Assembly: GCA_030295235.1 (NCBI GenBank)
Contig: AP026125.1
Coordinates: 1,426,001-1,490,000 of the forward strand
Length of the DNA stretch: 64,000 nucleotides
Direction of reading: 5' to 3'
From: Fistulifera solaris
Taxonomy: Eukaryota
Shown here piece by piece: positions 39,863 through 45,800 of this stretch. A program made the position numbers and the translations under genes. The notes under the pieces are model-generated. The model saw only the letters and a list, made by a program, of their open reading frames with translations, was not told the DNA's origin and did not search any database. Position 1 is the stretch's first letter; each line of letters begins with the position of its first letter.

Positions 39863-41418
39863 ATGACTACCGCGTCAATTTCGTGTGCCATAGACCGTAA
39901 CGATGCAAGCTTTCCGACGGACACTCATTGTTCACGAAAGGATGAACAAAGTCTACAAACAACGGCGGATGAACATGACGCAACCGAATATCGCAATCCA
40001 CTCATGAATTTGTTCGGAAGCAATAGCACGAAGCGTTTTGATCAAAATGAAACAGAGTTGGATGATATTCGTGTTCTTTCTTTCGTCAGCCGAGAGCGCG
40101 AACCCGGCTTTGACGATTGCCCCGAATACAGCTATGATTCTGACAATGAAAATACTTCACAGAACGATTGTCATGAGACACATGGTTCCGACGACGCACA
40201 CGGATCCTTGCAAGCTTACATTCTTGGAAAGAAATATCATCCCGTTCATGACTACACGCTTCGGAGAGAGGACGAAATATCACTATTTTGGTTCACCTAT
40301 CGCTGCGATTTTCCCGAAATAAAGCCATATCGAATTCAAAGTGATGCTGGCTGGGGTTGTATGTTGCGATCCGCTCAGATGATGCTCTGTCAAGTCTTAC
40401 GACTACATTACAAATCACGTACATGGAGACCTCCCAAGTCGTTAGCGGCACGGCGACAAGACCCATTCGTCAGTAGATTGATGACTTGGTTTGCCGATTT
40501 TCCATCGACCACAGAATGTTTTTATTCCTTTCAGAATATGGTAGCGGCTGGACTGAACTATGATAAATTACCTGGCGAATGGTACGGACCTGGCACGGTG
40601 AGCTTTGTCATTCGCGATTTAGTAGCTATACATGACCAACAAAGGCAAGAGCTCGACAAGACTCTATTTCGAGTGCACGTTGCAAGTCAAGGCACGGTGT
40701 ATCGTGACGAGGTACGCCGATTAATGATACAAGGCGCAAATACCGCTGCAGCTCTTACAAAAGGAGGAACCGCATCGAGGCCAGGTGCTGCGCATCCGCT
40801 AGACCACGCTGCTTGGGAAGAAGATCATCTTGAAAAAGTACCCGACTGGGACACTGCCTTGCTGCTATTGATCCCTTTGCGTTTGGGTCTGAAAACATTT
40901 AATTTGGACTACGTCCGAGCACTTGCACATACCTTTTCGTTGCCTCAGTCTGTCGGCGTGTTGGGGGTCGCCCACGTGGAGCGCGGTATTTTTACGGCGC
41001 ATTTTCCGATGGATCAAAAATTTTTGGTCTCGATCCGCATACTGTTCAAGCTGCACCACAGCGTGCTTCTGTGAGCATCAACGGAGAGTTGTCGTCAATG
41101 ATAGATTTATCAGACGAAAATCTTCGGTCCATACATACAGCCTACCCCGAATCTATTTCGCTCGAGAAAATGGATCCGAGCATCACCCTTGGGTTTTACT
41201 GTGAAAACGAACGTGATTTACAATTTATTTTTGAAAGCGTACAACAGTGGAAGACCGAAAATCCTGGGTCGCCGGAGCTGTTTACGACGGCAAATTATTC
41301 GCCGGACTACGCAGCAAATATTTCGTCAACCATGAAGAAAATCATGCTATCCAGTTCCTCGCTCCTTGACACGGAGGAAGATCAAATAAGCGACGAAGAT
41401 GACTATGTCATGCTGTGA
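39863..41418 (+). CDS. ATG4: Autophagy cysteine protease ATG4 (frameshifts ~40965-41070)
   Basis: WFTYR..SDAGWGCMLRSAQM, PGEWYGP, LIPLRLG, LDPHTVQ (alternate frame) and MDPSITLGFY. Confidence 0.93.
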
Positions 41419-41684
41419 GGTATCCGAAGGTATAACGTTGACAAAATTTCATCTATTTTTATAATAATTTAATTTAACCCAAATTTGTTATCGAGTGCTG
41501 CGCGTTGCTGCGCGATGCATAGATTGAATACCGCACCCGTAAAGAAAGTCCATCCACAATCGCACTGGTATCCAATTGTATGCTGCAACATGTGAGCGGT
41601 TTTAAAAGCACCAGAACAAAAAAAACTTCACCATGGCGCGCAAAATTTTTATTGCAAGCATCACATGATAACCAAAAGAACGCT

Positions 41685-41766
41685 CATAAGACCGGCACTC
41701 TAACCACTGAGTTACTAAGGCATTTAGCAATACCTTAGGCGAGGTTTGAACTCACGACCTCCGGCT
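41685..41766 (-). tRNA. trnI-UAU: Circularly permuted tRNA-Ile(UAU): 3' half 41766-41731, 9-nt spacer, 5' half 41721-41685
   Basis: The halves reassemble into a 73-nt cloverleaf: GCCUUAGUAACUCAGUGGUUAGAGUGCCGGUCUUAUG|AGCCGGAGGUCGUGAGUUCAAACCUCGCCUAAGGUA. Confidence 0.88.
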
Positions 41767-41848
41767 CACTAGCGTTGGGGTTAAGCCATTTTATCCTCAA
41801 CACCCGCGTGTTGACACTATGGTTCGAACAGCGCAACTGACGAATTTC

Positions 41849-42496
41849 ATGCTATACAAAGTTGTTTCTTTTGTAGACACTAGTATTAGCTGTACCGTAT
41901 CTGGAATTAAGATTAAGGATATCTCCGCTGCAGCAAGCAGTAAAAGCAAAAGCCATCGAAAAAAAACGACCATGATGACGACCACCAGCGATGCATATAA
42001 AAAGTGCGGCCGCTGCTGTCCCCTTGCAATCAAACACTCTCTCTTCCGGCCTTACCGATAGACTAACACAAATGGTTACTTTCGAGCACATGACGAAGCT
42101 CGTAACCGCATTAGAAGCATCGCAATCTAAACTTTTGACCTATGGCACCAATTGATACGTTAGTTGACTTGATGATTGAAATGCAATACGAATTATATGA
42201 GAAGTTACTACGGTGCCTTAGGGTGTCTCGAATAGAGACTTCTCATTTGAACAGAGAGATTCTCATTGAATCATCCGAACCTAGAGCGTACCAGTCCCGG
42301 TTGATTCGTGAATCAACCATACACTGTAGTTTTTTATAAAATAGAAAAAATATCCTCAATAAACAAAAAGTCAGCGAGCGCGACCGTCTCAATAAAGAAA
42401 ACCCAGCCTACGTGACTCTCTCTATCAGCACAGCCATTTCCAGTTCAACTTTATCCTTTTGCAGATCTTCCTATCCTTTCCTTCTTCAAAAACGCT
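41849..42496 (+). pseudogene. Decayed duplicate of the LSM2 upstream region, ATG, intron and first codons of exon 2
   Basis: Colinear similarity to 49397-50326. It has an extra ~310 bp in the intron and a 5-nt duplication in exon 2, and stops after AAAACGCT. Confidence 0.85.
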
Positions 42497-42832
42497 ATAT
42501 GTCGTATCAAGATTATGTCTAATGTTTATCACTATTTCGTGTTGTGCCGCGATCGTGCTCGCACGGAACATTGGATCACATACAAGTCCACCGACTCAGA
42601 GCGAAGGCCCGATTCACTAAATCGGAAAAGCAATCAACCAATACTCTGTTTACAATGAAAAATTGACCAAATCGCTTTGCCGAAAGCGTGCATCAAAGTG
42701 TCAACTTGCGATAAGATGGCAACCCAAAACTTACTGTCCGCACGAACGCGTCTCGTGGCTTTTCTACGCTCATGCGTCTACGCCACCCCAATTATTTTCT
42801 TTTAGATGCAATATAATTAGTTTTCTTACTTC

Positions 42833-45800
42833 TTAGTCTTCCCCAGAATCGTCGTTGAATGCATTGTCATTTTCGTCAACCGGCGCTTCATCCGAGGGCT
42901 GGACGTTTGTCACTTCCAACAAGTCAGAAGGATCGTCGAGCATCACTTGCGAAAGTTCGGAAAGCTCAGACGATACCGCAACAATTTCTTCCAAAGGTTC
43001 TAGAACGACACAGGGGGGTGGTCCCTCCGACCCTTCTGTCCTCTTGGCATTACGCAACAACCTCGCCGCTCGCTGAATTTTCTTTGTCTCATTGTAGCAA
43101 TCATTGCACTTTGACTGCTATTGCTTCCAACAATCCCACGCATCATAGAACTTATCAAGGTCCTTTGCTTCAAAGCACTTAGAACATATTTTCTGGTGAG
43201 GTAGTTCATTCGTACGGTCAACTTTGCTTCTTGCAATTTTCCCCGTCTTCGGCTTTTTGCAAGCAGCTGGCTTTCTCTTGGGCGCGAGCTTAATGGTCTT
43301 TGTGACTTTGGTCTTTGATTTACCCATCCCCATATTATCATCCATTCCCTCATCATCGGAGTCGTCAGAATCATCACCCTGAAACGGATCCTGGCGACCC
43401 AAGTCACTTTCGAGTCCCTTCTGCCGGTGCGTGGCTAGCTTTTTCAACCGTTCCACCTCAAAATTCTCACCCTGGTCACTATCAGCGTCGTCGTCGTAGT
43501 CAAAACAGGTTTGCGGAATCGTCGGAGGCACTATCTGCACGTCAAAGTTTATGCGGTTTCGATACGAGTGATTCTTTCGATGCTCTATTGCTTTTTCCCT
43601 TGCTCCTTCTTCCCCCCAATCTCGAGTAGAAAAATATGCTGGCCTTGGAATTGAACCAGTGGGTCCGCTTGATGTGTATTCACGACCCAATGCCACCCAC
43701 TGTGATGGTTTATCAACGTTCTTACTGCTCCTGAAAACACCAAGTACTGTTCCGTCTTCGCGTCGTTGCCCTTCTGTTCGGTCTTTCTTTTGGTTGTTGG
43801 CTTGATGGATAACCCCTCGTGGCAGCAGATTTCCACAGCTATTGTTTGTACGGTCTATGTCGGCATGGTCACATGTTTGGCCTCTCTTCAATTTCTTTCC
43901 GGTATGGCATTCAACGGCAAATCGAGAGAAATTTACAGTCCTTTAACACGCGCAATCGTAAAAGTGATCCGAAATGAAATCCTCCCATCCACTCTGCTGA
44001 CCCTCATTTGAATGGGGACGTGTCTTTTGGTTCGAGAGTTATAGACATACGTCCCTTCGTCGTTGACGTAAAGATACGGAAAACGAGGGCTTTTCCGCCA
44101 ATTATCTATGCCCTTGTGAAAGCGATTCTTGTCGCGAAACAGTGTATATGTATCGTACGTTTTCTCCTTCTCACTAACATAGCAAATCCAGAAAAAGATT
44201 TTGATGAGTCGTCTCGATGGTTTTCTAGTACGCAAGAGGAAAGTGGAAAATACCTTTTGTTTTGCTTCAGATTGTGTTTCTTGCTGTTATCTGACCGCGA
44301 TACCCAAGCTAGCTTTGTAATTCGATTGTCCCAAATGGGGCCATGGTGGTGTCCGACATGCCCACGTGGTCGTCTACCACGGAATGTAACCAACATAAGG
44401 TTGTGCAGATGGAAAGTTTTGTGAGCACCATTGCAAAGATTGCAAAAGATAGTCATCATCCGGTAACCGTCACTATCCAGTCGATAACTAAGAAGGTAGT
44501 AGGTTCTGGTGAAAACATGCCCCCGGAATAGCCCAAAAATTCCATATACACACTGTCTGCGCCTCGTTTCTTGTACGTTTGCCCCCAACTGACATGGCAA
44601 CTCACGACGAAGCCATCAACATGGCAGAAATACACGACGGGATAGTGGTTGCATACTGCTCCGCAGATATTCTTTGCAGCGACAATTGTCACTTGTCCTC
44701 TATCATCACTGTCATTCATTCTCTCTCCTATATTGGTTGGCTTCAAAGTAGGGTAAGGAATGCGTTCGGTATTGTGTCCTAAAAGAAAATGCGCACGGTT
44801 GAAATCGGCCGCTTCGTCTGGGTCGGCATCAATGTCCACAGGCTGTTCGGTGTCTGCTAATTGGGGGTCCATGTCATCCTCCTCGGGCTCTGAGTCCGAA
44901 TCCGTGTCCAATTCTGCATCTGAATCAACTTCAGTGGAGCCAAAACATTTGTTCAGTTGAGCTGCATCAAATGGGATCTGTTTCAGTTTGCCAGCATTCA
45001 TCCATTCTTTGATTAGTTTTAGTGGGACTTTTACTTCTTTATGCGCATTCCCCTGGCTGGCGTTAGGAGGATTGGGGGAATTGGAAATGATTCTTGAAGA
45101 AAAAATACGCTCGTGAGTGCAGCGATCCAGATTTCATTGAAGCCCGTCCACTTACTCGTTCATGTAGTAATTATTTGTCAAAATTCTCAACAAATCACTA
45201 TTTTCGGGATTCGTTTTCCCCGTAAAAGCCCCCGGTTCTAATTGTTGGACGCCCAAGTGTCTGCTTTCGCTCTCATCGCCTTCGCTTGAACGACTTTCGC
45301 TCTCATTGCTTACACTTGCAAGTGAATCTTCTAAATCTTCCGTTTCAAAAGCATGCTCGACGCCCCTTTTTGCTTCGTAAACAAAACCCTGAATGTCTAA
45401 GTCTTTGGCGCCGTACGTATCTAGAATGAACGACGTCAGCGACGCCTGTCCCCTGCAGCGAGTGCGCGTAGCACACTTCGTAGTAGGGTTCTGATGAGAA
45501 TCGACAAAGTCGAAAATGATGTCGCCATCGTCACTGGCGTACTTCAACACGCAGAAAACATGATCGCCGATGAGGATTGTGCCCGCTGCTTCCTGGCTTG
45601 CGGTCGCCAGTGCGCTCAAGAACTCATGTAGTGTCCTATCGTCTTTAATCGTCCCTTCATACCCCGGAGATCCGTCAGGTGAGTCAATCCGTTGCAGGTC
45701 GGACAAGAGTTCCGCATTCACATGCAAATGGTCGAGAAAACCATAGCGTGTCGGATTTTGTTTCCGTTTCTTTTGTCCTTGATTTTGCACCGGTCGGGGA

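Follow-up and report, generated by a model that had tools for sequence, protein, structure and literature searches.

A probable circularly permuted nuclear gene for tRNA-Ile(UAU) in a Fistulifera-type diatom

Here we describe a locus in a 64,000-nucleotide stretch of Fistulifera solaris DNA (assembly GCA_030295235.1, contig AP026125.1, positions 1,426,001 to 1,490,000 of the forward strand; hereafter, the window) that is probably a working, circularly permuted nuclear gene for tRNA-Ile(UAU). The gene and its candidate signals lie on the minus strand at 41674..41794 of the window, and the gene belongs to the type II permuted tRNA genes, with the junction at 37/38 and with the segment for the tRNA's 3' half located upstream of the segment encoding the 5' half. 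The case for this assignment is built from the anatomy of the locus, a diverged second copy of the region, and four further copies from metagenomes in which the stems have changed in a compensatory manner. Transcription, a circular intermediate, charging and decoding are inferred, the steps of the pathway being proposed by analogy with those of Cyanidioschyzon merolae.

A script parse of the minus strand yields, from 5' to 3', the 3' half, the spacer and the 5' half, flanked by a leader and a trailer (Table 1). Joined by script, the two halves form a 73-nt tRNA-Ile(tat) with a regular cloverleaf according to ARAGORN, and the standard tRNA elements are all identifiable by direct reading, namely U8, A14, G15:C48, G18G19, U33, G53:C61, U54U55C56 and A58. 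The 3' half includes the T arm GTGAG/TTCAAAC/CTCGC and the acceptor strand CTAAGGT followed by A73. On the minus strand, the leader reads AACGCT AGTG, whereas the trailer AGCGTT is followed by CTTTTGG. The G at 41769, three bases 5' of A38, is able to pair with C32, and A41770 is able to pair with U33; once both pairs are formed, U41768, G41767 and A38 are left as a 3-nt bulge. At its 3' site, the junction motif has this 3-nt bulge; its central helix (C32:G-3 and U33:A-4) is 2 bp long, its 5' bulge 4 nt and its outer helix 6 bp. The sequence GAGC is present at both junctions, so that the cut could move by up to 4 nt leaving the product unchanged. Folded freely, the 112-nt unit (minimum free energy of -39.2 kcal/mol, z = -3.3) forms its capped acceptor stem and leader-trailer helix as well as the T arm. 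The unit is flanked by candidate transcription signals, ATAAAAT at -28 and TTTT(T) at +8, without a run of 4 T between the halves.

Much of this anatomy had been claimed in an earlier note made from the letters of the window. The permuted layout (36-nt 3' half, 9-nt spacer and 37-nt 5' half, broken at 37/38), the full 73-nt cloverleaf and the perfect 6-bp complementarity of the leader AACGCU and the trailer AGCGUU are all borne out. Two of its points require amendment. The T-run that it saw behind the trailer is present, but the window is one T short of the sequencing runs, which contain an insertion behind 41673, so that the true terminator run is probably TTTTT. The anticodon-intron pair and the 3-nt bulge are present as well, and are kept in all five copies described below, but the note left unsaid that the motif is only a relaxed bulge-helix-bulge.

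In genomic order, the gene escapes the standard scanners. ARAGORN, with or without introns, finds no tRNA genes across the 64-kb window; Rfam at gathering scores gives no match over the window, including none to the tRNA family RF00005; and in a 341-nt scan (41560-41900), RF00005 has no match in genomic order even at E values up to 10. In a doubled-tile scan, each 160-nt tile of the window (1597 tiles) was doubled and the tRNA calls crossing the junction were counted; upon doubling, a gene permuted at 37/38 shows up as an intron-containing gene. Junction-crossing calls are found at this locus only, in 2 overlapping tiles of the 1597, and there are none in 5 block-shuffled windows. The junction pattern has a single match in the window compared to none in 100 shuffles. 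A covariance model derived from the four permuted copies outside the window has its sole window hit at 41685-41770 on the minus strand (81.8 bits, rough E of 1e-21). On the metagenome loci fetched, the doubled-tile scan gives 29 junction-crossing calls among 4773 tiles, many of them false, in tRNA arrays; the scan is specific only where there are no other tRNAs nearby, as in the window. The upstream GTTCGAACC (41821-41829) was weighed as a B-box remnant and set aside, given that it has no flanking stem and that the motif is loose.

The order of the halves is the same in independent assemblies. In the metagenome run X2, a single contig (record 13) bridges 41335-42183 with no other letters, and for X1, coverage of the locus from both sides comes from two contigs, records 5 and 7; X1 and X2 come from two separate studies. 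The runs are all contigs, none of them on record as RNA, and no joint at the tRNA junction was reported in them, which has no bearing on expression. X1 additionally contains, at equal depth, a second, diverged version of the region, the flanks of which differ at about 20 of the 134 listed positions (~15%). Such a version fits the allopolyploid nature of F. solaris, which is described as having two subgenomes in the accessible parts of the respective reports (PMC5935921; 10.1101/2021.11.10.468027). Within 41718-41754, the second copy has six listed differences, and all six preserve pairing. Two pairs show double compensatory changes, namely 4-69 (U-A to C-G) and 52-62 (A-U to G-C), and each of two others is altered on one side, 50-64 from U.G to C-G and 49-65 from G-C to G.U; in the same interval, there are no listed differences in a loop or the spacer. 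The T-run is kept or lengthened in the second copy.

Relatives of the gene are found in metagenomes. A first scan, with a pattern fixing the acceptor stem of the window gene, gave no matches. The pattern used in the second scan fixed only U8-U25 and C32-R37 and gave at least 118 matches in at least 117 loci; the numbers of permuted and conventional genes among these relatives are samples, not frequencies. Among the matches listed, 109 of 118 lie inside ARAGORN tRNAs (108 Ile-tat) and 9 are outside any ARAGORN tRNA; the Ile-tat among them include 86 with A37 and without an intron, 21 with G37, and 2 with A37 and an intron. In three of the nine listed matches outside ARAGORN tRNAs (loci L018, L044 and L088), the 3' half is located directly upstream, separated by a 7-9-nt spacer, and G37, the trailer and the T-run are all present. 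L018 consists of two permuted units in tandem, bringing the total to five copies including the one in the window; such a tandem arrangement is the proposed source of permuted genes. With introns allowed, ARAGORN finds nothing in L044 or L088. Among the remaining six of these listed matches, those in L036 and L084 are cut by the end of the locus, L011 and L037 have apparent interruptions of the T loop, and L066 and L099 are odd half-genes beside another tRNA. A junction pattern without the anticodon constraint has no matches in 185,579 prokaryote genomes and none in viral contigs; it matches all five copies and two further loci, L065 and L098, which were rejected as permuted genes because they are ordinary tandem Lys-Ile genes.

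The neighboring genes point to diatoms as the source of L044 and L018. L044 adjoins a gene for the CCA-adding enzyme, the best named relatives of which are from the pennate diatoms Cylindrotheca, Bacillariaceae, Nitzschia and Fistulifera. The organism-named relatives of the L018 neighbor are all diatoms (3/3, Pseudictyota dubia and Cyclotella), with no pennate name among them, so that L018 may come from a centric diatom. Judging from these affinities, at least two of the three loci are of diatom origin (L088 is 630 nt long), and the half order that the earlier note proposed to look for in other diatom genomes is found there. In L044:3-860 (minus strand), some 650 nt separate the permuted tRNA gene from that of the CCA-adding enzyme, the very enzyme that would finish maturation; this nearness is probably a coincidence.

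Several other loci recovered in the scan display peculiarities of their own. L011:1-700 (minus strand, ~350-379) is part of an AT-rich 35-kb contig with a tRNA-Ile(UAU) and a neighboring class II tRNA, and the T loop of both tRNAs is apparently broken by a short AT-rich insert, recalling the non-canonical introns of nucleomorphs and red algae. L066:1494-1594 and L099:294-400 each contain a solitary tRNA(UAU) 5' half with CTTATG at its end; another tRNA 5' end, which looks complete, comes no more than about 15 nt further on, and there is no 3' half upstream of the solitary one. Conventional Ile(UAU) genes with G37 occur in low-GC loci with 4-6 tRNA genes (L006, L010, L015, L034, L057, L063, L069, L077 and others), in one of which, L057, the tRNA gene adjoins a helicase-like frame. 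These loci look like tRNA clusters of giant viruses or phages, and their conventional genes show G37 to be a widespread feature of Ile(UAU) in this family.

The comparison of the five copies supports a constrained tRNA structure. In an alignment to the permuted-order cloverleaf together with the two anticodon-intron pairs, 94.8% of the 115 cells are paired, and 8 of the 23 pairs are changed on both sides, 2 of these in the anticodon stem, 2 in the T stem and 4 in the acceptor stem. The covariation score is 0.387 compared to 0.182 in shuffles, none of 500 shuffles reaches any of the five measures, and controls with slid partners pair in 26-52% of the cells. The D stem is invariant, but it was fixed by the search pattern. 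The pair G(-3):C32 is present in 5/5 copies, as is R(-4):U33 (A-U in 4 and G-U in 1), with positions -2 and -1 varying, and the 3-nt bulge and the junction geometry are the same in 5/5. With the cloverleaf enforced, leader-trailer helices form in 5/5 copies (AACGCU/AGCGUU, AACC/GGUU twice, CUCCGG/CCGGAG, and AUUUGCAA/UUGCAAAU); their sequences are unrelated between copies, as expected of a discarded helix that is retained only for its shape. The spacers are 7-9 nt long and unconserved in sequence. A run of at least 4 T follows G37 by 7-20 nt in 5/5 copies, with none inside the unit, and a TATA-like word, under a loose definition of the motif, precedes A38 by 27-58 nt in 5/5.

With regard to the host, the open reading frames (ORFs) of the window encode MCM, Nup93, ATG4, an ATG17-like protein, cyclophilin-SYF2 and other eukaryotic proteins in long open frames. 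The product of the MCM9 ORF falls into a 90% cluster with the named MCM9 of Fistulifera solaris, to which it is 96% identical, and with another public entry, to which its identity is 100%. By these protein affinities, the window is nuclear DNA of a pennate diatom of the F. solaris type. The published prediction of F. solaris tRNAs with tRNAscan-SE and ARAGORN comprises 76 genes with 34 anticodons (PMC5935921, Table S3). The only isoleucine tRNA in that set is AAU, with two copies per subgenome, and UAU appears in neither subgenome, at an AUA codon usage of 7.36 per 1000 codons (PMC5935921). The same table contains no Cys, His or Tyr tRNA in either subgenome and has the Phe, Leu(AAG) and Leu(UAG) tRNAs in one subgenome only, and its authors themselves suspected incompleteness (PMC5935921, Table S3). 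Further tRNA genes of F. solaris may be hidden from the standard scanners.

Taken together, these results uphold the remaining propositions of the earlier note, that the DNA comes from a diatom nucleus, that standard scanners miss the gene and that the gene is functional; for the last of these, the diverged second copy and the four metagenome copies with compensatory stem changes provide strong comparative support.

There are also observations that weigh against a working permuted gene. A G at position 37, a peculiarity on which the earlier note does not remark, is uncommon in a tRNA that reads an A-starting codon, and all 5 copies have it. In tRNAs reading ANN codons, A37 (as t6A) is almost always found. 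The 21 conventional Ile-tat genes with G37 among the matches listed make G37 look like a lineage trait rather than a sign of decay. U6.U67 is unpaired in 4/5 copies, that is, in the relatives, and the two L018 units have an unpaired C3.A70 as well. At the junction, the bulge-helix-bulge takes the relaxed form, and there is no strict hBHBh' motif, whose central helix has 4 bp. Since the search pattern fixed positions 8-25 and 32-37, including the anticodon, their conservation proves nothing. In the second copy, differences less than 31 nt from the contig ends are unlisted, so that 41688-41717 and 41755-41784 are outside the comparison. The published set from which Ile(UAU) is absent is a weak negative, being also devoid of Cys, His and Tyr tRNAs and representing a draft assembly. 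Finally, L018 lends itself equally well to a conventional reading, in which an 81-nt intron interrupts the gene: one unit's 5' half and the following unit's 3' half, taken together with an 81-nt insert, score 41.9 bits as an Rfam tRNA, against a gathering score of 29.

The alternative that survives best, albeit an unlikely one, is a non-coding RNA that resembles a tRNA but never becomes one by rearrangement, such as a Y-RNA-like molecule or a tRNA mimic, with the D arm, the T arm and the capped acceptor stem mimicking those of a tRNA and the terminal helix acting as a protein-binding stem. The top Rfam match in genomic order is YrlA (RF02553; 25.5 bits, E of 0.002), both L018 units reach 27-28 bits, and YrlA shares with the diatom locus its linear order, a stem that encloses, one after the other, the T arm, a capped acceptor-like stem and the D arm. 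For a decoding tRNA, both G37 and the mismatches in the acceptor stem would also be odd. However, these scores are far below the YrlA gathering score of 69, and the match reflects the shared arm order only. YrlA is bacterial and its stem binds Ro60, whereas the terminal helix of the diatom-type copies is unconserved in sequence, unlike what is expected of a protein-binding stem. The halves of the loop encode an anticodon and rejoin to an exact 7-nt anticodon loop, the G-3:C32 pair and the bulge are universal among the copies, and the gene would supply the Ile(UAU) that is lacking from the published tRNA set.

A pseudogene appears very unlikely. On this view, an intron-containing tRNA-Ile(UAU) gene would long ago have been duplicated in tandem and the locus would be what remains of the inner part, and the tandem units in L018 do fit the tandem-duplication origin discussed for permuted genes. 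Against such decay, all six listed differences of the second copy preserve pairing in a region with flanks that are ~15% different, the two-sided changes in the five-copy alignment leave nearly all cells paired, and the promoter-like word and the T-run are kept in every copy.

Smaller still is the chance that the two halves have their partners elsewhere, as parts of a conventional gene interrupted by a very long intron or of a trans-spliced gene. The halves of the neighboring L018 units, read as one tRNA with an insert, are what speaks for this possibility, but that would-be intron begins with a TTTTT run 7 nt after G37. There is no further copy of either half in the 64-kb window with up to 9 substitutions allowed, so that a conventional long-intron gene is excluded within the window; ARAGORN with introns finds nothing there or in L044 and L088; and the leader and the trailer of one and the same unit pair together in every copy. 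An assembly artefact with a conventional true order is extremely unlikely because, despite at least two homopolymer-length differences between the window and all runs, the independent X2 contig spans the locus, answering the concern over misassembly raised in the earlier note, and the identical half order recurs in three unrelated metagenome loci.

For the permuted gene that we favor, the anatomy matches that of the type II genes reviewed by Soma, and the accessible text of that review (PMC3978253) provides the Pol III, endonuclease and ligation pathway that is proposed here. RNA polymerase III (Pol III) would start downstream of the TATA-like element and stop in the T-run, producing a transcript in the order leader, 3' half, 9-nt spacer, 5' half and trailer. 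This transcript would fold into a cloverleaf, with the spacer closing the acceptor stem and the open anticodon loop held by the 6-bp leader-trailer helix, the C32:G-3 and U33:A-4 pairs, and the 3-nt bulge. The tRNA splicing endonuclease would cut after G37 and before A38; the relaxed hBH-like motif is described as measurable from the mature domain by the eukaryotic endonuclease (PMC3978253). The tRNA ligase would join G37 to A38 into an 82-nt circle, and homologs of the Trl1-type ligase are said to occur in diatoms (PMC4090602, accessible part). RNase P and RNase Z would then take out the spacer, and CCA would be added.

A much broader scenario is possible but doubtful. Under this scenario, the reversed layout would be ancestral and the only form of tRNA-Ile(UAU) across pennate and centric diatoms, for well over 100 million years, and would be one of several disrupted tRNA genes, with the Cys, His and Tyr genes also permuted or broken and thus invisible to scanners. 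Before 2007, the missing tRNAs of Cyanidioschyzon merolae were those with genes unseen by the standard scanners.

Table 1. Elements of the candidate permuted tRNA-Ile(UAU) gene, in the direction of the minus strand
Element	Position in window	Strand	Remarks
Candidate Pol III promoter element, TATA-like ATAAAAT	41788..41794	-	22-28 nt 5' of A38; putative role after Soma 2014 (PMC3978253, accessible text)
Discarded 5' leader, AACGCU strand of the leader-trailer helix	41771..41776	-	Perfect 6-bp complement of trailer
A(-4), G(-3), U(-2), G(-1)	41767..41770	-	A(-4):U33 and G(-3):C32 are the anticodon-intron pairs
Predicted 3' cleavage site	between 41767 and 41766	-	Directly before A38
tRNA-Ile(UAU) 3' half, A38-A73	41731..41766	-	36 nt; anticodon-stem 3' strand, variable loop, T arm, acceptor 3' strand, discriminator A73
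Spacer TTGCTAAAT linking A73 to G1	41722..41730	-	9 nt; presumed removal by RNase P and RNase Z
tRNA-Ile(UAU) 5' half, G1-G37	41685..41721	-	37 nt; acceptor 5' strand, D arm, anticodon-stem 5' strand, loop C32-G37, anticodon UAU
Predicted 5' cleavage site	between 41685 and 41684	-	Directly after G37
Trailer strand AGCGUU of the leader-trailer helix	41679..41684	-	Complement of leader
Candidate Pol III terminator, T-run	41674..41677	-	TTTT in window, TTTTT in sequencing runs; at +8

Apart from the tRNA locus, three features of the window are of note. All four runs have an extra G behind position 40962, inside an ATG4-like (Peptidase C54) frame at 39863-41074; the window probably contains a homopolymer-length error here that shifts the end of the frame. 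At 42318-42418, word depth increases about twenty-fold (322 in X1 and 100 in X2, compared to 15-30 nearby), with many alternative joints and loose ends; this segment looks like a dispersed genome repeat, and Rfam gives no match over 41900-42700. An X3 contig ends in 20 T just before 42795, and X3 does not cover 41409-42720; this end fits a poly(A) tail for the gene at 43118-43891 on the minus strand, which makes X3 probably cDNA.

In line with the earlier note, which knew of no such gene from diatoms, our full-text literature searches turned up no permuted tRNA gene described for a diatom or any other stramenopile. The tabulation of 2014, in its accessible text, lists 34 permuted tRNA genes from six algae and one archaeon, with no Ile(UAU) and no stramenopile among them (PMC3978253), and a 2026 review, in its accessible part, names only red algae, green algae and a nucleomorph as hosts. 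Together, these sources know permuted tRNA genes only from a single red alga, from a few prasinophytes among the green algae, from one nucleomorph of green descent and from one archaeon. On our reading, the locus adds a new major lineage and a new isotype to the type II permuted tRNA genes, and the diatom case would widen the range to a stramenopile nucleus. The apparent retention of one permuted gene across diverged lineages, with compensatory evolution, argues against permuted genes being short-lived accidents. Such a gene would also explain a gap in diatom tRNA annotation, the missing Ile(UAU), and other missing isoacceptors may be hidden in the same manner. Diatoms can be cultured and edited, which makes circularization, the need for the intron-like helix (for example, in anticodon modification) and the fitness effect testable; for F. 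solaris itself, editing with CRISPR ribonucleoproteins is reported (PMC13276009). If the broad ancestral scenario is true, the question of why permuted tRNA genes persist could for the first time be put to a group that is both genetically tractable and ecologically dominant.

The closest known counterparts are the type II genes of Ostreococcus, Micromonas and the Bigelowiella natans nucleomorph (Maruyama et al. 2010, as cited in the accessible text of PMC3978253). These genes, too, have both halves on one strand, with the 3' half upstream and the junction at 37/38; the junction has the relaxed hBH form that suits the eukaryotic endonuclease, and the upstream region is AT-rich. The intervening sequence is likewise short, 5-64 bp compared to 7-9 nt in the diatom-type copies, and the 9-nt spacer of the window gene falls inside the range of 1-74 bp given for known permuted genes overall (PMC3978253). 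The differences lie in the host, here the nucleus of a stramenopile, in the isotype, and in the occurrence of one permuted isotype in several diverged diatom-like lineages.

The permuted genes of C. merolae (Soma et al. 2007, as cited in PMC3978253) also have a TATA-like word within 50 bp upstream, a downstream T-stretch and no signals in the intervening part. Of these 11 genes, 6 are of type II, one of them with a 9-bp spacer as in the diatom gene, whereas other junctions in C. merolae are at 20/21, 50/51 and 59/60, compared to 37/38 in the diatom-type copies (PMC3978253). The circular intermediate and aminoacylation have been demonstrated in C. merolae (PMC3978253), whereas the diatom gene is known from sequence only. 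The tRNA-Ile(UAU) gene of C. merolae itself is described as not permuted and carries three introns (PMC9602550, accessible text).

The last comparison is with the intron-containing tRNA-Ile(UAU) genes of the yeast type, the exon-intron structure of which at 37/38 is mimicked in the diatom gene by the leader-trailer helix, the anticodon-intron pair and the 3-nt bulge. Unlike in the yeast-type genes, the halves are reversed, the 'intron' is open-ended, being composed of the leader and the trailer, and position 37 is G. According to the accessible text of PMC9602550, yeast Pus1 needs the intron-like structure to make pseudouridines 34 and 36 in tRNA-Ile(UAU). With this structure reproduced at 37/38, the diatom precursor could still serve the intron-dependent pseudouridylation of U34 and U36, and we speculate that Ile(UAU) tolerates the permuted layout since the leader-trailer helix keeps an intron-like structure next to the anticodon.

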